Assembly (NCBI RefSeq): GCF_022376835.1
Contig: NZ_CP084606.1
Coordinates: forward strand, 2,842,739 to 2,906,738
DNA length: 64,000 nucleotides
DNA from: Brucepastera parasyntrophica
GTDB lineage: Bacteria; Spirochaetota; Spirochaetia; Treponematales; Treponemataceae
Reading direction: 5' to 3'
This document shows, piece after piece, positions 2,201 to 57,003 of this stretch. The notes under the pieces are model-generated. The model did not search any database. It saw only the letters and a program-made list of their open reading frames with translations, and was not told where the DNA came from. The position numbers were made by a program, and so were the translations under genes. Positions within the stretch are counted from its first letter, which is position 1. The number at the start of each line of letters is the position of its first letter.

Positions 2201-4852
2201 ATGAAAAAAAAGTTATCCTGTTTGCACGCAGCTTTTATACCGGCTTTGGCCGCGGCCCTCCTGCTGACCGCCTGCAACGCCTTTAATGTTTCCGTGCCCG
2301 AATATCTTGAAGAATATACTTCAAACGCCGCGGCGGAGAGCTGGCGGATTACCACCGGCTCCCAGACCGGACCCGACAGTAAAAAAATTATTATACCGCC
2401 TTCTGACCCGGCGGAAGAAAGCAGCCACACCCTTATAAGCGTCCGGCTCAGGAACCCGAAAAAGTACCCGCTGGCGCTGGGGCTTTCCCGTTATGACACA
2501 GCCGAGGGGGAATATGTTTCTGTTGCCGGTGAAGCCGAAGCGGAACAGACTTCAGCCGACTATATAACAATAACGGTTAAAGATGCCTCCATCCGGGACG
2601 AGTTCCGGTTCCGGCTGTCGATGAAAACACAGGACAATCTCCGGACCTTTGCCGACTATAACCTTCCCCTTATCCGCTGCAATGTCACCCCCGCTTCCGC
2701 TGATAATCTTGAGGTGCGGAATGAAGCCGGGACGCCCACCGTATACTGGAACATGAATACCGCGGATGATTATATTGACGTGAATGAAGTTACGGTATAC
2801 CTCAAGGCCGAAAATACGATTAATACATATATGTATACGAGGGAGACAGATTCTGGTCCCTGGAAAACCGCCGGAGGGACAGAGCTTGATTATACTGATC
2901 CTTCCGCCAGTCTGGCCTTTCCTGCCGGTATGATATCGCAGGAAACAGGGGCTATGGATACGGAAGAATTTGAAAAATACTATAATTTCGCTGTTGTTCT
3001 GAAAAATTCCGACGGGCTTGAGGCCCGGAACGCAACGCCCGGTTTCGGCTGGGACGTATCTCCCGCGGTATTGGCCGGCATTGCCCAGTCGGATGATAAC
3101 CCCGCCCGGGTAAAAGTCACTCTGATCGCGCAGGACGGCAGCCTGAAGGCCGACGAAATACTGTATACGCTGGGCGGCGACAGTACGGTTCATACTTACG
3201 GAAATCCGTTTGAGGCCGCCATCGGAACGGAACTTGTTGCCTGGTCGACAAAGAGCGGCCGGATACCCTCGCGGAAAACCTCGCGAACCCTCATGCTCGA
3301 TACCGTAGTGTTTGTGGATGAAAACTCAACCCCGGCGGCGGATGATAATTATGGATTTGTACCGGCTCTTCCCGCGCCTACAATAGAGGCCGCCATAGAC
3401 TTGCTGAAAACGGCAGATTCCGCTTCCGGCACGGCCGTCCCGCGATATGTCCTGCTTATGTCCGATGTTACTTCCGGCAATTCCGGAAACACCAGCGCGC
3501 TGGTTGAAATAGTAAATTATGACAAAACCCTTGTTATACAGCCGATGGCAGAGAATGATACCGTAACTATTGACGCGGCTGACAGCGGAAGGACAATGTA
3601 TATATCCAGCACATATAACCCGGACATTACCCTGAAAAACCTGATAATAACGGGCGGAAGTCTTTCCTCCGATTATGGTCATGGGATTTTGCTGGTGAAC
3701 CGCGGGACCCTTACTCTGGACAACTGTACCATTACAGACAATGGTAATGGTTTCGGATCAGGCGGAGGGATTGCCCTAAACGGTAACTGGACGCTTAATA
3801 TAAAGGGCGAAACCCGGATCACGGAGAACACAGCCGCGAACGGCGGCGGAATATATAACCGCGGCGGGACTGTCAATATTGAAGACGGAACAATTTCCGG
3901 AAACGGCGCCTCAATGGGCGGGGGCATATACAATGACGGCGGAGCGGTCAATATTGAAAATGCGACCATTTCAGAAAATAACGCTGATCAGCGCGGCGGC
4001 GGTATCTGCATAGTAGCGGGCGGCGGCGGGAGCGTTACCCTGAACGGCGGGACCATTTCCGGCAATGAGACAGCCGGAAACGGCGGCGGAGTATATGTGG
4101 GCGGAGATACATTCAACATGAACGGCGACTTAGTCACTGGAAATACCGCGCAGAACGGCGGCGGTGTGCATATTGAGCTCGGGGCTTTCAATATGACCGG
4201 CGGGGTTATTACCGGCAATGAGGCCACGGTAAACGGCGCCGGTGTGTGTGTAAACGACGGGACCTTCTCCATGCAGGGCAACGCGAAGGTTATTATGGAA
4301 AACCCCGTGTATCTCAAGTCCGGAAAAACGATAACCCTTTCAGGTGATTTCAAGTACCGGGATGCTATCGCCAAGATACAGCCGGAAATGTACGATATAA
4401 ATGTCCGGGTGCTTGACGGGCTGGCCGGATACATTGCGGACAACCATACCAGCTTCGCGGTTGAGGATCAGGAGAACAGCGGTTCCTACCTCAGCTGGGC
4501 TGTCGATAAAAACGGGTACCTTGTTAAAGCCATCGGGATAAGCTGCGATTTTGTGGATGGTATATACGGGCTTGCCTTTACCCCGCCCTCGGATGGACTT
4601 ATCGTAGATAAAGAGGATACTGTCAATATTACTGTTAACCGGTCGTCTCTTCCCACAGCAGCCGGGCTTTCATATACCATACTGATAGAAGGTGAACCTG
4701 ATGTCTCCGCGGAGCTGCTGTCAGGCAATATGATCCCCTTTACCGCGCCAAATACGGCCGGGCAGCACACTGTTTTTGTGGAAATCATTGTGGACATGGA
4801 CAGCAGAAAAACCGCCTATTCCGGCAGCTTTGTGCTGACCGTGAGAATGTGA
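2201..4852 (+). CDS. Large surface lipoprotein with right-handed parallel beta-helix repeats (Pmp-like GGG[IV]/NGGG motifs).
   Basis: ATG with GGAGG RBS. Signal peptide ending in the lipobox LLTAC. More than 10 tandem repeats of xNGGGIYxxGGTVNIxxGTISGN type. Confidence 0.75.
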   Translation: MKKKLSCLHAAFIPALAAALLLTACNAFNVSVPEYLEEYTSNAAAESWRITTGSQTGPDSKKIIIPPSDPAEESSHTLISVRLRNPKKYPLALGLSRYDTAEGEYVSVAGEAEAEQTSADYITITVKDASIRDEFRFRLSMKTQDNLRTFADYNLPLIRCNVTPASADNLEVRNEAGTPTVYWNMNTADDYIDVNEVTVYLKAENTINTYMYTRETDSGPWKTAGGTELDYTDPSASLAFPAGMISQETGAMDTEEFEKYYNFAVVLKNSDGLEARNATPGFGWDVSPAVLAGIAQSDDNPARVKVTLIAQDGSLKADEILYTLGGDSTVHTYGNPFEAAIGTELVAWSTKSGRIPSRKTSRTLMLDTVVFVDENSTPAADDNYGFVPALPAPTIEAAIDLLKTADSASGTAVPRYVLLMSDVTSGNSGNTSALVEIVNYDKTLVIQPMAENDTVTIDAADSGRTMYISSTYNPDITLKNLIITGGSLSSDYGHGILLVNRGTLTLDNCTITDNGNGFGSGGGIALNGNWTLNIKGETRITENTAANGGGIYNRGGTVNIEDGTISGNGASMGGGIYNDGGAVNIENATISENNADQRGGGICIVAGGGGSVTLNGGTISGNETAGNGGGVYVGGDTFNMNGDLVTGNTAQNGGGVHIELGAFNMTGGVITGNEATVNGAGVCVNDGTFSMQGNAKVIMENPVYLKSGKTITLSGDFKYRDAIAKIQPEMYDINVRVLDGLAGYIADNHTSFAVEDQENSGSYLSWAVDKNGYLVKAIGISCDFVDGIYGLAFTPPSDGLIVDKEDTVNITVNRSSLPTAAGLSYTILIEGEPDVSAELLSGNMIPFTAPNTAGQHTVFVEIIVDMDSRKTAYSGSFVLTVRM

Positions 4853-4860
4853 GGAGGGGA

Positions 4861-7800
4861 ATGATGAGACGGAATACCTGCGTTTTACTGGCCGCGGCTG
4901 TTCTTGCCGCCTTATATATGACGGTTTCATGCAGCAACGCCTTTCTTGAGCGGGTCCCCTCGCGCGGACCGGCTCCGGCCGCTGAGGGAATGCTTGATAT
5001 CACGGCATCCGCCGCTTTGTCCGCGGGACGGGCCGCCTTTCCGAATATCGTAATAAGCAGATACGAGTTTACCGTCAAGGACGGGGCCGGAAAAGTAATT
5101 GGTTCAATCACTGAAACAGCGTCCGGTAACGCTGTCAGTATTACTTATCCTGCCTCGGCCGGATATACAATAACCGTGGCCGGAAAAGATTCTTCCGGCA
5201 AAGAGCTTGTCTCCGGCGAAGCTGCTGTTACTGAGGCCCATATCACCGCGGGGACGATGGAAATTAAGATATATCCTGTTACAACAGGCGGAACAGGTTC
5301 AGTTGATCTTAAAATAAAATTCCCGAAGGAATTTGATGACGGCAGTCCGGTAACAAGGGTCATAGCTGAACTCTTGCGGAGTGACGGCACCCAGGCCGGC
5401 CAGGCGCAGACAATTCTCTCAGGTTCATTCGGAGAGCCGGATGCCGGAAGCAGTTCCATAACCGTTGCGTACGATTCCGCGCCCGCCGGCATTCTGCGCC
5501 TGAAACTCACGTTTTACCGGTGGAAAACCACAAATCCTGAGGACGGGATTCCGGCCGGCGTTGTATACGAAAGCCTGAATGTCTGGGCAAATACCTGCAC
5601 GGACAGCTGGCTTAAAGTTACCGATACAACAACCGGTGTGTATGAGCTCGCGGAATACCTTGAACTCACTGAAGATGATTTTTATGATGCTACGGTGACG
5701 CTGGAGAGCGTAAAACAAGAATTTGATGATAATGGAATTGTGCTTGATCTTGTGCTAAACATTGACTATTATCACGAAGTTTCTGCAGAAAAAGTATCAT
5801 TAACTTTTACCATTGGTTTCGACGGTCAGTCGTTCACGATTACAGATGCCAAAGGTTCCTCCGCTGGGCTTGAACCGGATAAGACTTCTGATGGTGTTTT
5901 CAGTGTTTCAAATATTTCCCTTTTTCCCGGTCCGAATAAATTTGTGCTAACTGTAACAGCACCCGACAAACAAACAACAAAAACGTATAATCTGATATAT
6001 ACAACTCCTCCGATTTGGTATGTGGATGAAACCATAGGGGATGATGACAACACCGGAACGGCTACATATCCTCTTGCCAGTGTCAGCGCGGCACTTTCCC
6101 GCATAGCCGCATTGTATGATCCCGATACATGGCCGCATGATTTTGTTAATAATGAATCTGTTGGTCAAAAAACCGCCGAAATCCGGATCAACGGTGACCT
6201 TACTCCAACTGCAGATGACGCCAATCCCAATGGTTTCATTGTTATCGACAATGCCGCCGGTTCATATCCTCCCATACTGCTCAGCGGCAAAGGCGTTTCA
6301 TACCCGGGCGCCCTGGACGCGGATGGAGAGGCCCGCGTGCTGTATATAAACAACGCTGACGTTACCCTGGGCGAAAACCTTACATTGAAAGGCGGTAGCG
6401 CGGAAAGCGGCGGCGGCGTGTACGTGACCGGACCAAACGCGAAATTCACGGTGTCCGGCGGGGAAATTTCGGAAAATGAATCAACCGGTTCCGCCGATGC
6501 AAACGGCGGCGGAGGCATATACGCCGGAAACGGCGCTAAGGTGTTTATGACAGGAGGCACCGTCAGCGAAAATGAGGCGGTAAACGGAGGCGGCCTGTAT
6601 GTTACGGGAAGCGGAACGGCCCTTGAGATGACCAACGGAACCGTCACTGACAATGAGGCCGCCAAGGGCGGCGGCGTGCTGGTCCTGAATAACGCCGTTT
6701 TTACAATGAAGGACAATATCTTCCAGGGCGGAATTATCACCCGAAACACCGCTGTTTATGACGGCTCTTCTCTGCTCACAGGCGCCGGCGCGGGTGTGCT
6801 GGTATATACCGGAGGGAGCTTTAACCTTGAAGCGGGACAAATAACACAAAACGAGTCGGAACTGAACGGCGGCGGTGTACTGGTTATGGGCGGGACCTTC
6901 AATATGAGCGGCGGAACCATTGGCGGCAGTTCAACATCTGATGCCAACAAAGCGGTATACGGCGGCGGCATAGTCCTGTATGATGACGCTGTCTTTACCC
7001 TGACCGGCGGGGAAATCAGTTATAATGAAGCGGAGGAAGGCGGCGGCGTGTATATCAATAATGCTGCCGGAGGCGTCACCGCTGCAATGACCGATGGAAA
7101 AATCAGTTACAATACCGCGGATTCCGGCGGCGGGGTGTATATAACCGGAACAGGCCACAGGTTTAACATGAGCGGCGGGGAAATTTGCTATAATGAGGCA
7201 AACGCATCATTATATGCAGGCGGCGGCATTTATATTGAGGCAGACGCCAATACAGCCGTCAATCTGTCCGGTTCCGCACAGATACACCATAATACTGCAA
7301 CTGACGGTTTTGGCGGCGGAATTTACGCATACGGCGGAACCATTATCCTGAGTGAAGCCGCGGAAATAAGTGAAAATGAAGCGCTGGGCGGTGGCGGTTG
7401 CGGCGGCGGGATGTATCTGCAGGGCCAAAACAAATTTACGATGAACGGCGGAGCTGTCCGCGGTAATACCGCGAACAGTCAGGGAGGCGGGCTTTTTACG
7501 CAGCAAACTGAGTTTACCATGACTGCCGGAAGCATAGAAGATAATAATGCCGTCAATCTCTCTAATAGCTTCGGCGGAGGAGTATACCTGGACAGTGGAT
7601 CGCAGTTTACCATGAGCGGGACCGCGGTAATCAGAAACAATAAGGCAAACAGACAGGGCGGCGGTGTGAATATTTATTGTTCAACCTTCAATATGAACGG
7701 CGGGACAATAACAGGAAATCTGCTTACAAATACATCCTATTCCGAACCCGGCGCGGGTGTGTATGTCGAAGCGCCCCAGCTGAATTTCCCTGCTATATTC

Positions 7801-8226
7801 TCCATGAGCGGTCCTGCCCAGGTGACTGCAGATAATGACGTATATCTGTCACTTGGTGGCACCGGAAACTACCGAGCCATGCTAACGGTCGGCGGTAATC
7901 TCACCGCTTCAAAGGCCGCAGTCATTACGCCGGCAAGTTACCCCAGCGGAACGGACACTGTTCAGGTGCTGGACGGTGACACAGGGCTGATAACGGCAAA
8001 CGCCTCGAAGTTCGGCGTTACCCCGCAGATTGACGGGATTGACACGATATACTGGCAGGTGGACACGGAAGGGAAGCTGGACAAGATTCAAAGTCAGTCC
8101 ATTACTAACTTTGATGATCTCAAAAATGCAATAAACACTACCAACATTGGCGGAACCGCTATTCTGCTCATCGTCGGTACATTCGAAATGGAAGATACCA
8201 TCGCAATCAGTGATTCAAAAATATAA
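4861..8226 (+). CDS. Giant beta-helix repeat lipoprotein, paralog of the upstream gene. The reading frame is broken near its end and continues in 8214..9188. The track start GTG 4849 overlaps the upstream stop; ATG 4861 behind a GAGGAGG RBS is preferred.
   Basis: Lipobox MTVSC. About 25 NGGG[IV]Y/GGG[VL] beta-helix repeats. Starts 8 bp after the upstream stop, so probably in one operon. Confidence 0.75.
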   Translation: MMRRNTCVLLAAAVLAALYMTVSCSNAFLERVPSRGPAPAAEGMLDITASAALSAGRAAFPNIVISRYEFTVKDGAGKVIGSITETASGNAVSITYPASAGYTITVAGKDSSGKELVSGEAAVTEAHITAGTMEIKIYPVTTGGTGSVDLKIKFPKEFDDGSPVTRVIAELLRSDGTQAGQAQTILSGSFGEPDAGSSSITVAYDSAPAGILRLKLTFYRWKTTNPEDGIPAGVVYESLNVWANTCTDSWLKVTDTTTGVYELAEYLELTEDDFYDATVTLESVKQEFDDNGIVLDLVLNIDYYHEVSAEKVSLTFTIGFDGQSFTITDAKGSSAGLEPDKTSDGVFSVSNISLFPGPNKFVLTVTAPDKQTTKTYNLIYTTPPIWYVDETIGDDDNTGTATYPLASVSAALSRIAALYDPDTWPHDFVNNESVGQKTAEIRINGDLTPTADDANPNGFIVIDNAAGSYPPILLSGKGVSYPGALDADGEARVLYINNADVTLGENLTLKGGSAESGGGVYVTGPNAKFTVSGGEISENESTGSADANGGGGIYAGNGAKVFMTGGTVSENEAVNGGGLYVTGSGTALEMTNGTVTDNEAAKGGGVLVLNNAVFTMKDNIFQGGIITRNTAVYDGSSLLTGAGAGVLVYTGGSFNLEAGQITQNESELNGGGVLVMGGTFNMSGGTIGGSSTSDANKAVYGGGIVLYDDAVFTLTGGEISYNEAEEGGGVYINNAAGGVTAAMTDGKISYNTADSGGGVYITGTGHRFNMSGGEICYNEANASLYAGGGIYIEADANTAVNLSGSAQIHHNTATDGFGGGIYAYGGTIILSEAAEISENEALGGGGCGGGMYLQGQNKFTMNGGAVRGNTANSQGGGLFTQQTEFTMTAGSIEDNNAVNLSNSFGGGVYLDSGSQFTMSGTAVIRNNKANRQGGGVNIYCSTFNMNGGTITGNLLTNTSYSEPGAGVYVEAPQLNFPAIFSMSGPAQVTADNDVYLSLGGTGNYRAMLTVGGNLTASKAAVITPASYPSGTDTVQVLDGDTGLITANASKFGVTPQIDGIDTIYWQVDTEGKLDKIQSQSITNFDDLKNAINTTNIGGTAILLIVGTFEMEDTIAISDSKI

Positions 8227-9750: not shown

Positions 9751-9833
9751 TTACACAAAGTGCTGTGTGAGACGGAAAAAGTTTACACATTGCCGTGTGT
9801 AAGGAAAAAAACTTTACACATGGTCATGTGTAA
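9751..9833. promoter_or_regulatory. Array A: three tandem 20-bp palindromes TTACACA-N6-TGTGT(A/G)A at 9751-9770, 9783-9802 and 9814-9833. Each is followed by GG(A)AAAAA; unit period 31-32 bp. Lies upstream of the lipoprotein gene that starts at 9892.
   Basis: Read directly from the sequence. Related to array B at 12840-13093, which is in inverted orientation. Confidence 0.7.
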
Positions 9834-9891: not shown

Positions 9892-10014
9892 GTGAAAAAG
9901 AGACTGTCTTGCGCCCTGTTTCTGCCGGCTGTCCTCGCGGGCGTGCTTCTGGCCGTTTCCTGTGAAAACCCCTTTTACCGGGACTTCCTCAAAAAACCGG
10001 TTACCGTTACCTGA
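9892..10014 (+). CDS. Mini-ORF encoding only a lipoprotein signal peptide (VKKRLSCALFLPAVLAGVLLAVSC + 16 aa), ended by an in-frame TGA at 10012. It is the N-terminus of the downstream lipoprotein (gene interrupted).
   Basis: GTG start 8 nt after AAGGAG. Lipobox LAVSC. Same frame as 10015..12531. Confidence 0.5.
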   Translation: MKKRLSCALFLPAVLAGVLLAVSCENPFYRDFLKKPVTVT

Positions 10015-10071
10015 GACGCGAACGGGGGCGCGGGCGCCGTCCCTAGGGCGGCTGAGGCTGAAAAAGATGAT

Positions 10072-12531
10072 GTGATAACCGCTCCGGACGGAACCGGGTT
10101 GTCGAAAACAGGCATGGGCTTTGCGGGCTGGAACACAAAGGCCGACGGGACCGGCGTCTCCTATGCGGCGGGCTCAAAGATAAAGATAACGGGAAACCTG
10201 AAACTCTACGCCCAGTGGGCCGGGAACAGTTACACGGTAACCTATGACGGAAACGGCCACACGGGAGGCGCGGTCCCGGCCTCGGCTGACTCGGTGTACG
10301 GGGAAAGCCACAGCCTTGCCGGGCCGGGCGGTCTCGAAAAAACCGGCCACAGTTTCGCGGGCTGGAACACGGAACCTGACGGGAGCGGGACACCGTACCC
10401 CGCGGGGACGGGCGTGACGGCTGACTGGGACGGTCCTGTTACATTATATGCCCGGTGGGTGAGCGGCAACGCTGATTTAAGCAATCTGACGGTAAGTGAA
10501 GGGGCCCTGTCCCCTGCCTTTGACCCTGGCGTCATATCTTACACGGTGGAAGTACCCGACACCACGGACAGCCTGACGGTGACAGGCGCCGCGGCGGACA
10601 GCGGGGCGGAACTCAGCGCGAACAGCGGAGCGCCCCAAACACTGAGCGGAGACAGCACTCCGGTAACAATACGGGTGACCGCGGCGGACGGAAGCATAAA
10701 GGACTACACGGTAACCATAGTCCGGCTCGACACCGCGAAAACCATAACGGGTTTCAGTTTTACCGGACTTGCGGAAGGCAATATAAATGAAAATGAAAAA
10801 ACGGTCACGCTCACAGCGCCGTACGGGACGGCTGTAACAGGCCTCGTACCCGATATAACGCACACCGGTGTGAGCGTGAGTCCCGCGTCCGGCGAAGCGG
10901 AGGACTTTACAAACCCGGTAACATACACGGTGACCGCAGCTGACAGCAGTGCGCAGATCTATACGGTAACGGTGAGCGTCGCCTCCCTTGTGTCGATAAC
11001 TCTGAGCGGCGCATACAAGACTCAATATAAAATTGGTGAAAGTCTTGACACCTCGGGACTGGTAATTACGGGGACGGACAGCGCAGGGAACAGTGTGGCA
11101 ATACCTGCCTCCTCATGCGACTTTACAGGCTTCAATAGCGCGACGACGGGTGAAAAAACGGTGACGGTAACCGTGACGGGTACGTCCGTGACAAAAACTT
11201 TCTCCGTGACCGTGCTGAGCAATAACGCGAACTTAAGCGCCCTGACGGTGAGCAACGGAACCCTGACCCCTGTCTTTGACACGAACACGACAAGCTACAC
11301 GGTGAGCGTGGCGAACAGCGTGACCAGTATAACGGTAACCGGTACAAAAGCCGACAGCACCGCAGGTCTGAGTTCTAACAACGGAGAGGTTCAAACGCTT
11401 TCCTTGGGAACGAATCCCATATCCATAACAGTGACCGCGCAGGACGGAACAACCAAGGTATACACGGTAACGGTGACGAGATCGGTACCCAGTACCAACG
11501 CAAACCTTAGTGGCATATCGTTAACTTCGGGAACCCTGAGCCCTGTGTTTACATCCGATGTACTTAATTATACGGTACGCCTGGCTAACAGCGTGAGCGG
11601 CGTCAGGATAACGGGGATAGCGGCGGACAGTGGGGCTGTTGTGAGTGGCAGCGGCTCAACTGACACGCTTACGGTCGGGACGGCAACGCCCAAAACAATA
11701 ACGGTGACCGCCGAGGACGGTGTGACAACAAAGACCTACACCGTAACGGTGACGCGGCAGGGCAGCGCGAGCCTGAGTGCATTGACAGCCAGTGCGGGTC
11801 AGCTGACTCTGGCGTCGTCGGAAACGAATTTCGCAACTACTGGATTTGCATCGGCAGCACTTGACTATATAGTGGGGATAGCTGGAACAAGCGGTGAAAC
11901 GAAGAGCGTAACGATAAACGCGACATCTGCCAGCGGAACGGTGAGCTATTCGCTTGCCGGAGGAGTCGTAAGTGGAATAAGTCGCGGGAACCCTCAAGCG
12001 CTTGAGATAACGGTAACAAACGGAAGCGAAACTTGCATATACACGGTGACCTGTATGCTTGTCGGCTACACGGGCGAGGCAGGCCTTGTATTCTACGACA
12101 AAGGAAATAGCACCGGAGGCTGGCAATACCTTGAGGCTGCGACTGCGGATGCAGGTACGGCGGAATGGGGCTTATCCGGAGTACGCATAAGCGAAACGGT
12201 GACAAGTATAGGAAGCGGAAAGGGAAACACAGGGATACTGGTGAGTGCGCTTACGGCAGCGGGAGAAAGCGGACGGGCAGCACTGCTGTGTGATGCATAC
12301 AGCGGCGCTGGGAGGACTGACTGGTATATGCCGAGCAAAGACGAGCTTAATCTGATGTACAGTAATCTGCACAAGAACAGCCTGGGCAGTTTTACGAACC
12401 ATGGGTACTGGTCGTCGTCTCAGTACTCTCCTAATGAATACGGCGTAGCGTGGAGTCAGTACTTCAACAGTGGAGACCAGATGGACAACAGGAATATTTC
12501 ATTTTACGTACGGGCCTGCCGGGCTTTTTAA
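10072..12531 (+). CDS. Surface protein body. Flg_new (Listeria-Bacteroides) repeats x2, four cadherin-like beta-sandwich domains (ADLSNLTVSxGxLSPxF...YTVTV.R), and a C-terminal DUF1566 (Lcl-like) domain. The in-frame open reading extends back to 10015, right after the TGA.
   Basis: YTVTYDGNGHTGG / GHSFAGWNTEPDGSG / LYARW motifs. Repeated beta-sandwich modules. WYMPSKDELNLMYSNL DUF1566 motif. Confidence 0.75.
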   Translation: MITAPDGTGLSKTGMGFAGWNTKADGTGVSYAAGSKIKITGNLKLYAQWAGNSYTVTYDGNGHTGGAVPASADSVYGESHSLAGPGGLEKTGHSFAGWNTEPDGSGTPYPAGTGVTADWDGPVTLYARWVSGNADLSNLTVSEGALSPAFDPGVISYTVEVPDTTDSLTVTGAAADSGAELSANSGAPQTLSGDSTPVTIRVTAADGSIKDYTVTIVRLDTAKTITGFSFTGLAEGNINENEKTVTLTAPYGTAVTGLVPDITHTGVSVSPASGEAEDFTNPVTYTVTAADSSAQIYTVTVSVASLVSITLSGAYKTQYKIGESLDTSGLVITGTDSAGNSVAIPASSCDFTGFNSATTGEKTVTVTVTGTSVTKTFSVTVLSNNANLSALTVSNGTLTPVFDTNTTSYTVSVANSVTSITVTGTKADSTAGLSSNNGEVQTLSLGTNPISITVTAQDGTTKVYTVTVTRSVPSTNANLSGISLTSGTLSPVFTSDVLNYTVRLANSVSGVRITGIAADSGAVVSGSGSTDTLTVGTATPKTITVTAEDGVTTKTYTVTVTRQGSASLSALTASAGQLTLASSETNFATTGFASAALDYIVGIAGTSGETKSVTINATSASGTVSYSLAGGVVSGISRGNPQALEITVTNGSETCIYTVTCMLVGYTGEAGLVFYDKGNSTGGWQYLEAATADAGTAEWGLSGVRISETVTSIGSGKGNTGILVSALTAAGESGRAALLCDAYSGAGRTDWYMPSKDELNLMYSNLHKNSLGSFTNHGYWSSSQYSPNEYGVAWSQYFNSGDQMDNRNISFYVRACRAF

Positions 12532-12631
12532 CTATTAAATGTTTGAACCGCGGAGGCTTGGCAGGCGGTCAAAATGTTTTTTTACTATGATTTATGCCTT
12601 GGCTTAAGCAGTAAATACTGGCATTCTAAAG

Positions 12632-12660
12632 GGGAACGAGTTGCTGTGCAAGTCGTTCCC
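12632..12660 (+). terminator. Candidate terminator hairpin downstream of the DUF1566 lipoprotein gene.
   Basis: gggaacga / tcgttccc 8-bp stem with a 13-nt loop, followed by a T-rich tract. Confidence 0.35.
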
Positions 12661-12839
12661 TACTTGATTCTTCGACTTGCCTAACTTGTCTCCAGAGGAG
12701 TAAGGCGGAGTAACGACACGGCACACTGGATTTTAGAGAAATTCTACCGGAAAGCCGTTCAGGAATTTGTCGCTGAGCAGGTTAATCTGGAAGTTCTCTG
12801 ATGGGCTTTGTTTTTTGCCAAACTACGGCAGTTTGTACC

Positions 12840-13093
12840 TTACACATTACCGCGTGTAGCCCGGGACAGTTTTACACATATCGGTGTGTAAGATAGCCTC
12901 TGTTTTTCCATAGACGCTGACTGTCGGGCAAGCGCGCCAGTCACCAAGAGAAAGAAACCCGCTATAACAGCCTTCCATATCCACGCGGCAGTTCCAAACC
13001 AAATTACTTCCTACACATCCCAATGTGTAAACTTTCCCTTTCTTACACACACTATTGTGTAAGCTTTCCTTTTTCTACACACTGCATTGTGTA
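12840..13093. promoter_or_regulatory. Array B: the same palindrome family in inverse orientation. 12840-12859 is degenerate, 12872-12891 is perfect, and a triplet lies at 13011-13030, 13043-13062 and 13074-13093 with a 31-32 bp period and T/C-rich 3' tails.
   Basis: Read directly from the sequence. The units are reverse complements of the array A units. Confidence 0.7.
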
Positions 13094-13548
13094 ATCTTTT
13101 TTCTTCTTGAAAAATACCTGAAACCATATCCCGCCGCAAAAACATAGCGTTACATAATTTTTTGCCTCAAATACGATAGCCCATCGTATCAGGCCTGGTT
13201 TTACCGTATCGCTATACACTAAAACTTTCGTCAGGAATAAGGACGAGGGGGCAGCGTAAGACCCCTGACTTTGGCTATTAGCCAAAGTCAGGAGGCTGGA
13301 GACTTTATGATTATTGAAGGAAAGGGTAATCTGAATCCGACGGGAATTGGAAGCCGGGACCGGTTGGCCCCTCGCGGAGAGGGAACATTCTGAAAAGAAA
13401 GACCTCGGTTCGGAGAGAAACAATACCGGCCGCCGAATAAACGAATGCGAAATAGTTTTTATGGCTATTATCGCGAATAGGAGCTCGGTGTACCCCGAAA
13501 AAGCAGGGAAGACTTCCATCCCTTATTTTATAAGAATGGGAGAAAAGT

Positions 13549-14091
13549 ATGAAAGAAGAGGCAAAACGGTATGTTGGTTTAGATTTAGCCAAACGAACAA
13601 TGGAAGTATGTATTCTTAATGACTGCGGAAAAACAGAGCTGAGTAAAAGCGGGGTAAAGACTGACGAAACCGGAAGGAGCCAATTGGCAAACATCTTGAA
13701 ACAAACAGATATTGTGGGAATGGAAGCCTGTGCGTATGCATTTGTACTGGGGAGATATATAGAACAAGCTGTTGGGTGTACGGTATATATTCTAAACCCA
13801 GGGAAGTTACAAATGATATGGCGCTCGACACGAAAAACAGACAAGGAAGACGCACGTAAAATAGCTTCATTTATTCAAAGATATCCGAAAGAAGAATTAC
13901 CGATAGTAGTAATGCCAAGTGAAGAAGAGGAAATGCTGCGGAAATACGTATCAATGAAAAGTTATTTGACCAAACTGCGGACCAGTGTCCTTAATCGGTT
14001 ACATGTAGTATATGTCCAAGCAGGAATAACGACCATAAAAAAGAGTCATTTACATACACCCGAAGGAAGAATGAAACAAAAGGAAGGATGA
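13549..14091 (+). CDS. IS110-family transposase, N-terminal DEDD (RuvC-like) domain. Ends at an in-frame TGA at 14089.
   Basis: YVGLDLAK...MEACAYAF...KTDKEDARKIA motifs. Confidence 0.75.
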   Translation: MKEEAKRYVGLDLAKRTMEVCILNDCGKTELSKSGVKTDETGRSQLANILKQTDIVGMEACAYAFVLGRYIEQAVGCTVYILNPGKLQMIWRSTRKTDKEDARKIASFIQRYPKEELPIVVMPSEEEEMLRKYVSMKSYLTKLRTSVLNRLHVVYVQAGITTIKKSHLHTPEGRMKQKEG

Positions 14092-14103
14092 CCGGAAATA
14101 CTG

Positions 14104-14658
14104 GTGATATTTGCGGAACTATTAGAAAAAGAATTAAAAACGACCGAAGAGCAATTAAAAGAGTTAGAGAGAATCATAGAAAATAACGTAAAAGGCCATG
14201 AATTGGCGCCGTATGTGATGTCGATTCCTGGGGTAGGAATTGGTGTAGCGGCAGCATTTCTTGCCTATGTGGGGGATGGGAGTCGGTTTTCAAAAGCAAG
14301 TGAAATAGCCAATTATGTAGGACTGGTGCCCCGAATAGATTGTTCGGGAGAAACGAATCGGTATGGCAATATTACTAAAGAAGGATGCCGGGCCTTACGA
14401 AGGGTGATATTACAATCGGTATGGTCATTAGTACGATGTAAAGAAGGCGGCGGCCGATTACAAGCAAAATTTTTCGCGCTTAATGAACGGATGGGAAAGA
14501 CGAAAAGTGCTGTTGCGATTGCGCGAAGGATGGTTACCCTTATGTGGATATTGGTACGGCGGAAAGAATTCTATGCAGATATATCAACGGAACAACTCAA
14601 ACGGAAGTTTCGTTATTATCACATACATTATGAGGGATGGGAGTCAAAAATCGCTTGA
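14104..14658 (+). CDS. IS110-family transposase, C-terminal (Transposase_20) domain. Same frame as 13549..14091.
   Basis: SIPGVGIGVAAAFLAYVGDGSRFSKASEIANYVGLVPRIDCSG motif. Confidence 0.75.
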   Translation: MIFAELLEKELKTTEEQLKELERIIENNVKGHELAPYVMSIPGVGIGVAAAFLAYVGDGSRFSKASEIANYVGLVPRIDCSGETNRYGNITKEGCRALRRVILQSVWSLVRCKEGGGRLQAKFFALNERMGKTKSAVAIARRMVTLMWILVRRKEFYADISTEQLKRKFRYYHIHYEGWESKIA

Positions 14659-14762
14659 CAATAATCATAGGAGCGAGGGGGTGCCGCGTCTGCGGTGCTC
14701 CTGTCCGGAGCCTGACGGCCGGCTGTTCCGGCTGGAAGGCGTTCCCCCTTTAAAATAAAAAA

Positions 14763-14797
14763 GGCGTGTCCGGCAAAGCGCTGTGTCCGGGCACGCC
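14763..14797 (-). terminator. Rho-independent terminator for the minus-strand gene 14806..15834.
   Basis: ggcgtgtccgg / ccgggcacgcc 11-bp stem. On the plus strand an A-run precedes it, which is a T-run after the stem on the minus strand. Confidence 0.6.
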
Positions 14798-14805
14798 ATC
14801 TTTTC

Positions 14806-15834
14806 CTATTCCCCGTCCTGTGTTCCCGGGGAATATTCCCTGCGGAGGGTTTCCTCGTCCTTGAGGCTTTCGGTCATGCGGTCAAGTTCGCTTTTTGCCT
14901 TTGAATCTCCTGTCGAAGTATACAGGTCCTGCATGAGGGCGATTGCGCCTCCGGTGTTTCCGAGCAGTTCCGTCAGGAGCGCCGCGTTATAGCCTGCCGC
15001 GAAGTTTCCGTTTTCGGCGTATACCTCGCTGAATATTTCGCGGGCGTCCGCGTAGGAACCGTTCTTTACCAGAGTGTCGGCTTCCTTCATTCTGGGGTCT
15101 TTTGTTTTGTCTTTTTCAAAATACCTGTGTTCGACTGCTGTCCAGGGCGCGATTTCCCTGCTGAACAGGGCGAGTTCGTCATTTATAATCATCCTGACCA
15201 GATCGAGTTCTGACATGAGGGAGGTCCTGACATTCAGAATGTCCGTGTCTTCCTTCCGGTCGGAGGCAGTTCCCGATTTTGTTACCTGGCTTATGATCCT
15301 GCCGTTGTCGGCTCTGATAAAGCGGTAGGTGAAGTCAAGGGTAACGACCCGCTCCGCGGTATAGATTTTTGTGAGGGAATCATTCGAGGAGGAAACTTCG
15401 CTGACGTTTTCCAGAGTACGGGCCGAAAGAAGATTGATTTCGCCGGTGAGGTAGGCGTCGACTACCGAGGCGTAACCGCCCTGCGTATTTCCCGCTCTGG
15501 CCAGCTGGTCCTGGCTGATAACAACAAAGGCGTTTGAGGCAAGCAGTTTGTCCGTGACTGCAGTTGTCAGGGCCTGGGCCGCCTGCTCTTCAAGGCGGGT
15601 GTTGTATTTATTCGCCGGAGAAAAAAAACGCTGATACACTGTGTTTAGCTGGCCGCTGTCCGTTTTATTATAGGCCAGATCAAAGGGGGCGACCGCGATA
15701 CGCTGGACCCCGCTCATGTCGGTCAGGGGAGGCTTTGTGACCTGGACCCGGACCGAGGTCGCGCAGGAAAAAAACAGCACAAGCAGGGCCGCCGGTAAAA
15801 AAACATTTTTCAGGATTGCAGCCTTTTTATTCAT
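14806..15834 (-). CDS. Hypothetical lipoprotein with a C-terminal TPR-like helical region.
   Basis: Start MNKKAAIL preceded by AAGGAG. Lipobox FFSCA. The track ORF extends to 15915. Confidence 0.55.
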   Translation of the reverse strand: MNKKAAILKNVFLPAALLVLFFSCATSVRVQVTKPPLTDMSGVQRIAVAPFDLAYNKTDSGQLNTVYQRFFSPANKYNTRLEEQAAQALTTAVTDKLLASNAFVVISQDQLARAGNTQGGYASVVDAYLTGEINLLSARTLENVSEVSSSNDSLTKIYTAERVVTLDFTYRFIRADNGRIISQVTKSGTASDRKEDTDILNVRTSLMSELDLVRMIINDELALFSREIAPWTAVEHRYFEKDKTKDPRMKEADTLVKNGSYADAREIFSEVYAENGNFAAGYNAALLTELLGNTGGAIALMQDLYTSTGDSKAKSELDRMTESLKDEETLRREYSPGTQDGE

Positions 15835-54162: not shown

Positions 54163-57003
54163 CTATTCCAGCAATTGAGCGATCTGAGGCCGCTGCCAGC
54201 GGACAGCAATATCATAAGGGGTTTCTCCCGCAATATTCCGCGCCCTGCGGTCAATTCTGGGCATATTCAGGAGTTCTTTTACGCTGTCCGCGGTTCCCAG
54301 CCGGGCTGCATAGTGAAGCAGTCCGTCGCCAATTGTATCTGTTTTCCCCGCCGCATATTCAGCCAGAAGGGGAATAAAAGCCGGTATTTTGGTAAGTACA
54401 AGACTTACCACATTTTCACCTGAGTTATCCGAAGCAAAGGGGTCCGCTCCCGACGCAAGCAGAATCCGGGCCGCGGTCTCATCATTGTTTTTTACTGCGA
54501 GCAGAAGGGCCGTTGTCCCTGTCCTGTTCCGGTTATTGACCGGAATTTTTGCGTCTATAAGTGACTGAAGTATTTCCGTGCTGCTGTGTTCCATTACCGC
54601 GATATGAAGAGGAGTGTTTCCGTCGGAATCGACCAGGTTCGTGTTTGTGCCGATTACAGCCATAACAGTTTCCCTGTTTTTGCGGAAGGCCAGGGAAAGA
54701 GGAGTTCTTCCGTATGAATCGCGGGCCATGGGGTTTCCTCCGGCCTTTCGGATCAGGGAAATGATTTCCGGCGCGGAATATTCTACGGCTTCATGGAAGG
54801 CGTTCCGTCCGTACATATCCTGCATGACCGGAGAAGCTCCTTTTTCAAGAAGAAGCCGTACCGAATCGGGCCTGTTTCCCTGAATGGCGTCAGTCAGCGG
54901 AGTTTTTCCTGTTTCATCAACCGCATTTATGTCGGCGCCGTTTGCAAGGAGCATTTGAAGGAAGGTGATATTTTCTGTTCTTGCTGCTTCGTGAAGGGTT
55001 GTTTTCCCCGCAAGGTTTCGGGCATTTATAAGGCGGCGTCCGTTTGTTCTCGCGTCATATGAAAGCAGCATATTCGCCGCGTTTTCCGCGGACCAGTTGA
55101 TACAGGCATGGAGCGCCGTATTTCCGAGAAAATCCCTTGCGTTTATATCTGCCGCCCGTTCCGCAGTATTCTGCGACAGAAGAGTTCTGACAGTGGCGCT
55201 TGAATCTGCCTTTACCGCATTGAAAAGAGGAGTCTCGCCGTTTGAATTTCTGGCGTTTAAATCGCCTCCTTTTTCCACAATAAGGGAAACCACGCTGTTA
55301 AGCTGCCATTCGGCGGCCAAATGGAGCGGAGTATTTCCCGCTCCGTCGGATGATTTTATAACATTTGAATTGAGAACCCAGTCCTGCCTGCCTCCCATGC
55401 GGGAAAGCGCGGCCCTCAGGGCTGATTCACCTGCGACATTGGGATTGAATACATCGGCCCCATAGGCGAGCAGGATTTCTCCGGTATCCCTTGTGTTATT
55501 TCTTACCGCTATATGAAGGGGTGTATCGCCGTTTTTGTCCCTGGCATTCACATCAGCTTTCTTTTCTATAAGATAGTTTATAATATCCGGTTCACTCTGA
55601 TTTATAATTGCAATATGAAGAGGGGTCCTTCCGCGTGAATCCCGTGACTGTACGTTTGAATCAATTATTACGGCCTGTGTCATTACCAGACCGCTTTTAA
55701 GGGCCTTAATCAGGGCCGTATTTTCATCAATGTCTTCGGCGTGAATATCTGCCCCCAGTCTGACAAACAGATTCGCCTGCGCAATCTGATTCCGTTCTAT
55801 GGCGAGGGAAAGAGGGGTTACTCCCTTTTTGTTTCTTTCATTTGTATCCGCGCCATGGGAAATCAAGGTACGGATAATGTTTTCACTCATTCCGAGACGG
55901 GCCGCTATATGGAGCGGGGTTTCTCCGTAACTGTCTTTTTTATTGGGATCGGCCCCGGCATTCAGAAGGGCTGAAAATATTTCAGACCGGGAGCCGGCAG
56001 GCATAACCAGATGGAGCGGGGTATTTCCGGCTGAGTCCTGCTGATTGGGGTCTGCCCCAGCCTTCAGGAGAATGAAGGTACACTGGATATGGCCATTCCG
56101 GACTGCTTCATGCAGGGGCGTCGCGCTGGAAACGTCCTTTACGTTTACCTGTACCCTTCTCTCAATCAGATAGTTCACAAAACCCGTGTGGCCGTTTGCG
56201 GAGGCAATGTGAAGGGGTGTTTTTCCCTCCTCAAAGCGCATACCGGGGTTTCTCTTGAGGACAGCTGTTTCAAAATATGCAAATTCACCCAGCAGAGGTT
56301 CCGCTCCGGCGATCAGAAGCGCCGCGGCTATACGGGCGCTTGCGTCATTAAAGGGGTCTGTGTATGCAACCGCAAGGGGCGTCATCCCCGTGGAATCGGC
56401 CGCCGAAACATTTCCGTCAGACCGCAGAATAAGTGTCACTGCGTCTTCGTTAAGATCAGCCACCGCATAATGAAGGAGGGTCTTGCCGTTACTGTCTCTC
56501 TGGTTCACGGTATTTTGTGTAATAATGGAATTAAATGTATCAGTTCCCCTGTCAAGGGCCATTCTGTAAACAGCCACACCATGCAGGTTTACGGAAAAAA
56601 CATTGGATCCGGCCATAGCCAGAACTCTGGCAGCGTCAAGACATCCTGCGTCAACCGCGGCCGCAAGGGGCGTGTCACCTTCATTATCCATTGTTTCTTT
56701 CGATGCATTCATACTTAAAAGAAACTGAACCATTTCAGCGTCATTTCTCAGCGCCGCTATGTGCAACAGGCTTTGTCCCTGGGCGTTTTTCTGATCGACG
56801 GATTCGGACCCGGTCAGCCTTCTTTTTGCCTCGGCTGATCTTCCGCTGGAAATAAGGTCGATAAGGCTGGAATCAGTTTTTTCCGGAGCCGGTGTTGTTG
56901 TACATGATGATACCGCATATACTGCAATAATAATTGTTAATAACAAAACAGATTTTCGTAACATTTTTTCAGTCATAAAATCCCCCGCTTTTATAATCGG
57001 CAA
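54163..57003 (-). CDS. Ankyrin-repeat lipoprotein with about 25 ANK repeats. The likely start is MTEKMLRK at 56976 or MLRK at 56964.
   Basis: Lipobox AVSSC. Repeated GxTPLHxAxxxGHxxxVxxLLxxGAD units throughout. Confidence 0.8.
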   Translation of the reverse strand: MPIIKAGDFMTEKMLRKSVLLLTIIIAVYAVSSCTTTPAPEKTDSSLIDLISSGRSAEAKRRLTGSESVDQKNAQGQSLLHIAALRNDAEMVQFLLSMNASKETMDNEGDTPLAAAVDAGCLDAARVLAMAGSNVFSVNLHGVAVYRMALDRGTDTFNSIITQNTVNQRDSNGKTLLHYAVADLNEDAVTLILRSDGNVSAADSTGMTPLAVAYTDPFNDASARIAAALLIAGAEPLLGEFAYFETAVLKRNPGMRFEEGKTPLHIASANGHTGFVNYLIERRVQVNVKDVSSATPLHEAVRNGHIQCTFILLKAGADPNQQDSAGNTPLHLVMPAGSRSEIFSALLNAGADPNKKDSYGETPLHIAARLGMSENIIRTLISHGADTNERNKKGVTPLSLAIERNQIAQANLFVRLGADIHAEDIDENTALIKALKSGLVMTQAVIIDSNVQSRDSRGRTPLHIAIINQSEPDIINYLIEKKADVNARDKNGDTPLHIAVRNNTRDTGEILLAYGADVFNPNVAGESALRAALSRMGGRQDWVLNSNVIKSSDGAGNTPLHLAAEWQLNSVVSLIVEKGGDLNARNSNGETPLFNAVKADSSATVRTLLSQNTAERAADINARDFLGNTALHACINWSAENAANMLLSYDARTNGRRLINARNLAGKTTLHEAARTENITFLQMLLANGADINAVDETGKTPLTDAIQGNRPDSVRLLLEKGASPVMQDMYGRNAFHEAVEYSAPEIISLIRKAGGNPMARDSYGRTPLSLAFRKNRETVMAVIGTNTNLVDSDGNTPLHIAVMEHSSTEILQSLIDAKIPVNNRNRTGTTALLLAVKNNDETAARILLASGADPFASDNSGENVVSLVLTKIPAFIPLLAEYAAGKTDTIGDGLLHYAARLGTADSVKELLNMPRIDRRARNIAGETPYDIAVRWQRPQIAQLLE

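Follow-up and report, generated by a model that had tools for sequence, protein, structure and literature searches.

The stretch of 64,000 nucleotides analysed here (the window; positions 2,842,739 to 2,906,738 of contig NZ_CP084606.1 of Brucepastera parasyntrophica) contains an insertion sequence (IS) of the IS110 family that resembles ISLin1 of Leptospira interrogans. The best reading of positions 13302-14673, with a probability of about 0.8, is a single ISLin1-like copy that entered a structured intergenic region at an AG dinucleotide, carries a bridge RNA and a recombinase gene interrupted at codon 181, and was inactivated recently. The element is a bridge-RNA-guided member of the IS110 family and belongs to a class that was already explained in 2024.

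The recombinase is encoded by two open reading frames (ORFs) of 180 amino acids (13549-14091) and 184 amino acids (14104-14658). An earlier reading from the sequence alone had placed the two in one frame with the TGA at 14089 as their sole separator, and this is confirmed; four sense codons follow the TGA before the second ORF is counted. The read-through product contains the Pfam domains DEDD_Tnp_IS110 (PF01548, residues 9-153, E=7.6e-16) and Transposase_20 (PF02371, residues 222-298, E=3.7e-20). The residues D12, E59, D98 and D101 and the serine of the DCSGET motif align with the corresponding residues of ISCro4 and IS621, as is expected of an IS110-family protein. Both domains and these residues bear out the family assignment made by the sequence-only reading. 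The solved IS621 and ISCro4 transposases are distantly related to the window protein (E about 1e-17). A protein search returned 2424 homologues, of which the closest are 73% identical; the best-scoring ones are single ORFs of 366-369 amino acids.

Judging from the codons found in relatives, the TGA most likely arose recently, as a nonsense mutation in the linker that joins the RuvC-like domain to the transposase domain. The aligned codon encodes leucine in 13 of 13 relatives compared at the DNA level (CTT in five, CTG in four, CTA in two, and TTA and TTG in one each). None of them has TGA, and the column is a nearly invariant leucine in the protein alignment. A single change converts TTA to TGA. 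In this genome TGA serves as an ordinary stop codon, with 17 of 38 long ORFs terminated by it, and clear long genes (e.g., 4849-8226, 54163-57003 and 59379-61988) contain no in-frame TGA. An alternative genetic code with TGA as a sense codon was rejected on these grounds. A search for a stimulatory or selenocysteine insertion sequence (SECIS)-like hairpin downstream of the TGA found no strong one (-7.3 kcal/mol, z=-1.6). Neither of the two marks of recoding, a stop conserved in the homologues and a structure downstream of it, is present. The gene had been described as either inactivated or expressed by read-through. This is a fair dichotomy, in which the 13 leucine codons favour inactivation and read-through is without support. 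As it stands, the window copy most likely makes no full-length recombinase and would be mobile only with help in trans.

An unlikely alternative is that the TGA comes from an error in sequencing or assembly, or from a minority allele, and that the element is active with an intact recombinase of 369 amino acids. The frame and all the other conserved residues (D12, E59, D98, D101 and the serine of DCSGET) are intact, as are the bridge RNA and both inverted repeats, and a lone in-frame TGA in a second gene of the window (9892-12531) could hint at base-calling errors. However, the site shows no sequence sign of an error, such as a homopolymer, the change from TTA to TGA is an ordinary mutation, and pseudogenised IS copies are common. 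It is considerably less probable that the TGA is decoded, by programmed read-through, selenocysteine or suppression, to give a low, regulated level of full-length recombinase. UGA followed by C is a weak termination context in well-studied bacteria, and the second in-frame TGA, in a surface-protein gene at 10012, would fit such decoding. Against it stand the 13 relatives with a leucine codon and no TGA, the top matches among the best 120 of the 2424 homologues, which are single full-length ORFs, the lack of a SECIS-like hairpin, and the normal use of TGA as a stop in the genome.

The surface-protein gene is an observation in its own right. An ORF with a lipoprotein-type signal peptide (GTG at 9892, MKKRLSCALFLPAVLAGVLLAVSC...) is in frame with an 819-amino-acid surface-protein ORF that carries Flg_new, Cadherin-like and Big_3 domains, and the TGA at 10012-10014 is the only separator in 9892-12531. 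Its context, VTVT-TGA-DANGG, resembles the way in which a Listeria-Bacteroides repeat begins; such a repeat should have an aromatic residue at this place, and TGG is one step from TGA. This gene is either a pseudogene, the product of an error, or a hint of low-level UGA suppression.

No second copy of the element was found in the 64-kb window, so relatives were used to set its boundaries. These were 17 close and about 60 distant relatives, with DNA fetched from genomes, metagenomes and individual contigs. The organisms in which relatives occur, and the genes of the window, both point to a spirochaete as the host. In a metagenome scan the relatives among the matches listed were mostly about 40% identical, and the closest relatives were fetched singly. 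On the left, nucleotide similarity starts abruptly at AG ACTT TATGATTATTG (13300 onward), and nothing further left is shared with relatives. On the right, it extends through CTTGACAATAATCATAGG AG (14654-14673) and ends there. The GC content is about 0.40-0.45 inside the element and about 0.55 in the right flank, which agrees with these boundaries. Both junctions carry AG, with no long duplication of the target, as in the relatives and as in site-specific insertion by the IS110 family. ISLin1 lies within a 36-bp tandem repeat, the uninterrupted units of which directly show a single AG common to both junctions. In the window copy the left terminal extension is 4 bp and the right one 2 bp, in each case with the 2-bp core in addition. 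When the ends are joined in silico, TTGACA (14655-14660) lies exactly 17 bp from TATGAT (13306-13311), and both boxes are conserved in relatives. No comparable promoter was seen upstream of the leader in the integrated state. A promoter across the joined right and left ends (RE-LE junction) has been described for IS110 and IS1111 elements (PMC11208160, PMC11187229).

These boundaries divide the non-coding leader of about 285 bp that had been proposed as a unit. Positions 13302-13548 (247 bp) are inside the element, and only 15 bp separate the stop codon from the right end. Positions 13264-13299 are host flank, since homology starts at 13300-13302. It is highly improbable that the element reaches left to 13252, includes the hairpin at 13264-13292 and is bounded by the 8-bp direct repeats CGAGGGGG (13244-13251 and 14674-14681). 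The direct repeat (ATAAGGACGAGGGGG / ATAGGAGCGAGGGGG) does flank 13252-14673 on both sides. However, 13252-13299 is common to no relative and homology begins at the AG core, the 17-bp geometry of the junction promoter and the left-target guide of the RNA both fit a boundary at 13301/13302, and IS110-family elements do not make 8-bp target duplications (PMC11187229, PMC11208160). Many 8-mer repeats are expected by chance within 2.5 kb. The direct repeats were therefore rejected as element ends on the start of homology, the promoter geometry and the chance expectation.

Comparison of leaders argues strongly for a conserved structured RNA in the long non-coding end of the element, on the recombinase strand, as in bridge RNAs and seekRNAs. 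An alignment of 17 leaders (A6) was used to build the covariance model R1, which scores the window at 160.9 bits (13323-13501, E=4e-33). In A6, 93.6% of the cells are paired and 24 of the 46 pairs have changes on both sides, compared with about 40% paired and 9-11 compensatory pairs in controls with slid partners. In an alignment of 84 sequences, 91% of the cells are paired and 42 of the 46 pairs are compensatory; the slid controls across both alignments gave 9-23 compensatory pairs. R1 has 84 matches in the fetched loci (L numbers below); only two of them are not on the transposase strand, and almost every match is immediately upstream of the gene. The matches include ISLin1 (71.6 bits) and relatives with only 35-40% protein identity. 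The leader folded alone is not better than shuffles (z=-1.03); the evidence for the structure is comparative.

In the fetched locus L037 (2775-2805) an insertion makes an extra hairpin (GGGTCAGCCCCTTTCGGGGCTAATC), and the RNA otherwise scores well (132 bits). L076 has a second bridge-RNA match on the contig (4372-4572), and L119 has two close together on opposite strands (1099-1281, minus; 1504-1717, plus). The second matches in L076 and L119 could be nested or adjacent insertions of related elements.

The internal loops of the RNA are complementary to the flanks and ends of the element. The reverse complement of the right-target guide, GCGAGGGG, is the second core base followed by the first seven bases of the right flank, so that the right half of the target matches at 8/8 positions. 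The left-donor guide equals the right end and core at 7/7 positions, and the ATAGGAG motif is nearly invariant across the family. The right-donor guide is patchy in the family; it is clear as AUAAAC/GTTTAT in L163-166 and as AUAUCUA/TAGATAT in L006, and weak in others.

The complementarity to the target covaries with the target throughout the family. On the left side, at least 7 consecutive nucleotides are shared between the loop and its own flank in 69% of 62 distinct loci, versus 3.4% for non-cognate pairs. On the right side, the reverse complement of the loop matches its own flank over at least 6 nucleotides in 51% of 49 loci, versus 4.5% for non-cognate pairs. The near-identical L005, L009 and L038 have the loops CGCAAAG, CGCGAAG and CGCCAAG and the flanks CGCAAAG, CGCGAAG and CGCCAAG, respectively. 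The one to three bases that follow the core on the 3' side of the loop track the first bases of the left end of the element. An internal loop that is predicted to pair with both target halves, and that covaries with the target across relatives, is what is expected of a bridge RNA. The proposal that the upstream non-coding region encodes such an RNA is upheld by the R1 score, by the complementarity of the loops to flanks and ends, and by the family-wide covariation. That the structured leader is merely a cis-regulatory 5' untranslated region (a translational attenuator) with no guide function has next to no probability, because both variable internal loops covary with the DNA flanking each copy and so track the insertion site, even though the leader's 3' portion can mask the ribosome-binding site by pairing.

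The site occupied by relatives L167-L169 (…CTTCGG AG CG[T/C]GGGGGAGCCG…) is a perfect match to the left guide of the window copy. The window copy may thus sit in a near-cognate (off-target or half-matched) site that is matched mainly on its right half. Half-matched insertion has been reported for IS621.

Several observations weigh against the overall reading of an inactivated copy with its own bridge RNA. The left-target guide fits its own left flank poorly; UUCGGAG compared with the left flank and core GCTGGAG gives 5 Watson-Crick pairs, 2 wobbles and 2 mismatches over nine positions, and only GGAG is contiguous. The right-donor guide is just 5 nucleotides in the window copy. No family in Rfam matched 12500-15300 (E up to 10); XIST_intron (on the hairpin), Mu-gpT-DE and DnaX appeared only as noise far below the gathering scores, so that the RNA assignment rests on R1, a model built in this analysis. 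The alignment of 84 sequences (A7) was fitted to R1, and its pair counts lean towards the structure. The element is the only copy in the window, and the rest of its ORF has no decay, which fits a very recent mutation but also an intact gene.

Table 1. Features of the IS110-family element and its insertion site (positions of the window).
Feature	Position	Strand	Evidence or remark
Perfect palindrome, 14-nt arms and 1-nt spacer, in host flank	13264..13292	.	Ends 8 nt left of the core
Left target half-site and core, AGGCTGG+AG	13293..13301	+	Imperfect match to 3' side of target loop
Left core dinucleotide AG	13300..13301	+	AG 6-5 nt before the -10 box in 55/68 relatives
Insertion sequence, 1372 bp counting one core copy	13302..14673	+	Alignments A2, A3, A5
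Left subterminal inverted repeat TATGATTATTG; first six bases TATGAT are the -10 box	13306..13316	+	Exact reverse complement of 14659-14669
Bridge RNA: closing helix, 5' stem-loop, target-binding loop module, donor-binding loop module	13323..13501	+	Covariance model R1
5' stem-loop (P1)	13329..13352	+	10 pairs, 6 with changes on both sides
Right-target guide CCCCUCGC, 5' side of target-binding loop	13368..13375	+	Reverse complement GCGAGGGG is exactly 14673-14680
Left-target guide UUCGGAG, 3' side of target-binding loop	13409..13415	+	Same sense as left flank and core
Candidate right-donor guide AUAAA, 5' side of donor-binding loop	13437..13441	+	Complementary to TTTAT 13304-13308; weak, discontiguous
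Left-donor guide AUAGGAG, 3' side of donor-binding loop	13477..13483	+	Equals right end and core 14667-14673, 7/7
Leader segment GACTTCCATCCCTTAT	13511..13526	+	Can pair with ribosome-binding site AUGGGAG (13536-13542)
N-terminal ORF, RuvC-like DEDD domain, ends at premature TGA	13549..14091	+	D12, E59, D98, D101 present
In-frame TGA (codon 181) in the interdomain linker	14089..14091	+	
C-terminal part of the frame, Transposase_20 with catalytic Ser in DCSGET, otherwise intact	14092..14658	+	
Segment of ORF 3' end complementary over 16 nt to 13511-13526	14630..14645	+	
-35 box TTGACA, overlaps the stop codon	14655..14660	+	Conserved in relatives
Right subterminal inverted repeat CAATAATCATA	14659..14669	+	Perfect 11-bp match to left repeat
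Right core dinucleotide AG	14672..14673	+	AG after CATAGG in 38/52 relatives; A first in 50/52
Right target half-site CGAGGGG	14674..14680	+	

Transcription, circle formation and catalysis of an intact element can be proposed by analogy with IS621 and ISEc11. The element would be excised as a circle, in which the RE-LE junction would read ...CATAGGAGACTTTATGAT... and would create a sigma-70 promoter (TTGACA, 17 bp, TATGAT). This promoter would drive the bridge RNA (about 180 nucleotides) and the recombinase mRNA. The first internal loop would pair with the two halves of the target and the second with the donor junction; in the second, AUAGGAG would bind the right end, and AUAAA, weakly, the left end. 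Strand exchange at the shared core would then be carried out by the recombinase. The uninterrupted site is expected to read ...CAAAGTCAGGAGGCTGGAG|CGAGGGGGTGCC..., with the hairpin retained, and the target consensus is expected to be NTTCGG-AG-CGAGGGG.

The best annotated relative is ISLin1 (Leptospira interrogans; listed in the IS110 family in ISfinder), with 39% amino acid identity over 97% of the protein. Like the window copy, ISLin1 has an AG core, the right end CATAGG, the left end TATGAT, an 11-bp subterminal repeat (with one mismatch in ISLin1) and an RNA upstream of the transposase that R1 recognises. Its loops match its own flanks (UUCAUAGAU on the left and AGAGAGCG on the right). The two differ in that the proteins are only 39% identical, ISLin1 has a different target, a 36-bp tandem palindromic repeat, and the nonsense codon belongs to the window copy. 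On the L. interrogans plasmid pLiSL25 (L170, 880-960 and 2278-2400), ISLin1 is found inside a tandem array of the 36-bp unit AGAGCGTTGTGTTGAGTTTTCCAACGCGATTCATAG. At a distance of one unit upstream from this full copy there is a solo ISLin1 right end (…CTTGACACAAGAAACATAGGAG), an arrangement that suggests repeated insertion into the array or recombination within it.

The window element is also similar to IS621 (PMC11208160, PMC11208158). Both have a recombinase with DEDD and serine residues (E=6e-17 to 8wt6) and an RNA in the left end upstream of the gene. In both, a 5' stem-loop is followed by two stem-loops with internal loops, for target and donor, and the core is part of each guide. A promoter arises at the circle junction; in the window element this promoter is predicted from sequence. 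The handshake guides of IS621 are also resembled, in that one or more bases that follow the core-containing guide agree with the other DNA partner. The order of the guides differs. In IS621 the left guide is 5' and the right guide is 3' (left target guide, LTG, A50-U58; right target guide, RTG, G77-G80), whereas the window element has the reverse order, with the top-strand complement first. The core of IS621 is CT with a nearly invariant T; that of the window family is AG with a nearly invariant A, which is CT on the other strand and has its invariant base in the corresponding place. The window element therefore does not have the IS621 type of bridge RNA, with its left guide 5' of the right guide and its CT core. 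Read on the complementary strand, the arrangement becomes that of IS621, and presumably the chemistry is conserved with the cargo inverted relative to the crossover. The subterminal repeats are 2-3 bp in IS621 and 11 bp in the window element, and protein identity is only about 25%.

A reversed guide order is known from the IS1111 group. IS1111-type seekRNAs have the top-strand complement first, and subterminal inverted repeats of 11-13 bp are a hallmark of these elements (Siddiquee 2024, PMC11187229). The non-coding region is downstream of the gene for the transposase in nearly all members, with ISMtsp17 among the exceptions (PMC11187229). The IS1111-type elements ISEc11, ISPa11 and ISKpn4 (PMC11187229) share with the window element the perfect 11-bp subterminal repeats and -35 and -10 boxes that come together when the ends are joined. 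Within the group, some elements insert beside folded sequences such as repetitive extragenic palindromes (REP) and attC. The window element has the perfect 11-bp repeats and the top-strand complement 5' of the bottom-strand match. However, its RNA is upstream instead of downstream, and its extensions (left, 6 or 4 bp; right, 2 or 4 bp) are not the 7 (or 6) bp and 3 bp of IS1111. According to the published supplementary identity matrix, the transposase of ISLin1 shares only about 20% identity with the tight IS1111 cluster. The window element thus mixes the features of the two groups; the upstream RNA is of the IS110 type, the guide order and 11-bp repeats are IS1111-like, and the extensions fit neither exactly.

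It is possible, as a tentative proposal, that the ISLin1-like clade is an architectural type that has not been explicitly described, with an upstream RNA, the IS1111-like guide order, 11-bp repeats with -35 and -10 boxes, an AG core and a covarying long-range pairing. If this is true, the ISLin1-like type would represent an intermediate, by circular permutation, between the layouts of IS110 and IS1111. Its AG core would be the CT of IS621 on the opposite strand, with the cargo inverted relative to the polarity of strand exchange.

The long-range pairing would be between a leader arm that follows the bridge RNA on its 3' side and the last part of the transposase ORF. The two segments are complementary over 10-21 nucleotides and are about 1.1 kb apart. 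The complementarity is also found at the same positions in L001, L004, L008, L010, L016, L089, L102, L106 and L161-L168. The arm sequences vary by subfamily and the complementarity is kept (CCATCCC/GGGATGG, CCTGGTCC/GGACCAGG, CCTGATTCCA/TGGAATCAGG and CCAGTCCTC/GAGGACTGG). The arm at 13511-13526 is also an anti-Shine-Dalgarno sequence. In the circle the arms would bracket the junction and the bridge RNA and could form a processing stem or a translational switch. No description of this long-range pairing is known to us.

The insertion site has its own structure. The hairpin at 13264-13292, which the sequence-only reading had reported with a perfect 14-bp stem, is real. Only four perfect hairpins of at least 14 bp occur in the 64 kb, and their sequences are mutually unrelated. 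Its assignment to the leader and bridge RNA did not hold, since homology to relatives starts at 13300-13302 and the hairpin is present in 0 of 17 relatives. It is instead a feature of the site of insertion and lies in the flank of the target. The same reading had placed the element right beside a palindrome array (array B) and had seen in this a REP-type targeting. Array B spans 12841-13093, at least 207 bp from the insertion point, and the target is defined by the loop-flank pairing at 13293-13301 and 14672-14680, so that targeting through the array is unsupported. The array was also ruled out as a target since the same motif recurs at 9752-9832 upstream of another gene. Both the hairpin and the target sequence are single-copy in the 64-kb window, which does not resemble REP targeting as in ISPa11, ISPpu9/10 and IS621, for which the target is an extragenic palindrome repeated many times in the host. 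A search of the fetched loci for the uninterrupted target gave one match, in L017, which is inside a coding ORF and is probably due to chance.

A weaker version of hairpin targeting survives, in that several relatives, including ISLin1, adjoin hairpins or palindromic repeats. The insertion lies a few bases after strong hairpins in L011, L086, L087 and L168. Family-wide, left flanks are not more structured than control windows (Mann-Whitney p=0.88). In a subfamily whose proteins share about 45% identity with the window protein (L011, L086, L087, L084 and L088), the insertion is 2-8 nucleotides past a strong hairpin of 7-17 bp, and the hairpin in L011 is terminator-like. This suggests that certain clades target the 3' foot of hairpins.

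Removal of the IS in silico (13240-13301 joined to 14674-14745) gives a compact fold of three hairpins closed by GGGGG/CCCCC, and the second hairpin has the insertion point in its 5' arm. At this locus the motif GGA(G)CGAGGGGG is found in two places (13243-13251 and 14670-14681). The palindrome TACACA-N6-TGTGTA has eight copies in three clusters (9752-9832, 12841-12890 and 13012-13093), always 32 nucleotides apart, and 11 matches in all versus 1.0 expected. One array is upstream of the surface-protein gene and the other is upstream of the structured intergenic region that the IS interrupts. The clusters look like operator arrays of a dimeric regulator and not like a REP family or an IS target. 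The locus that was split by the IS may, on the modelled fold, be an unannotated structured RNA downstream of an operator array.

For the annotation of this genome, the boundaries of the element are corrected, and the neighbouring hairpin and palindrome array become host features. Bridge RNAs and seekRNAs are a recently discovered programmable recombination system, and each defined clade enlarges the catalogue for engineering and evolution. The comparison yields mapped guide positions and a working covariance model for the ISLin1-like clade, which is common in spirochaetes and in termite-gut or rumen metagenomes. It also indicates that the location of the RNA is not coupled to guide order or to the subterminal repeats, which bears on the interconversion of the IS110 and IS1111 layouts.

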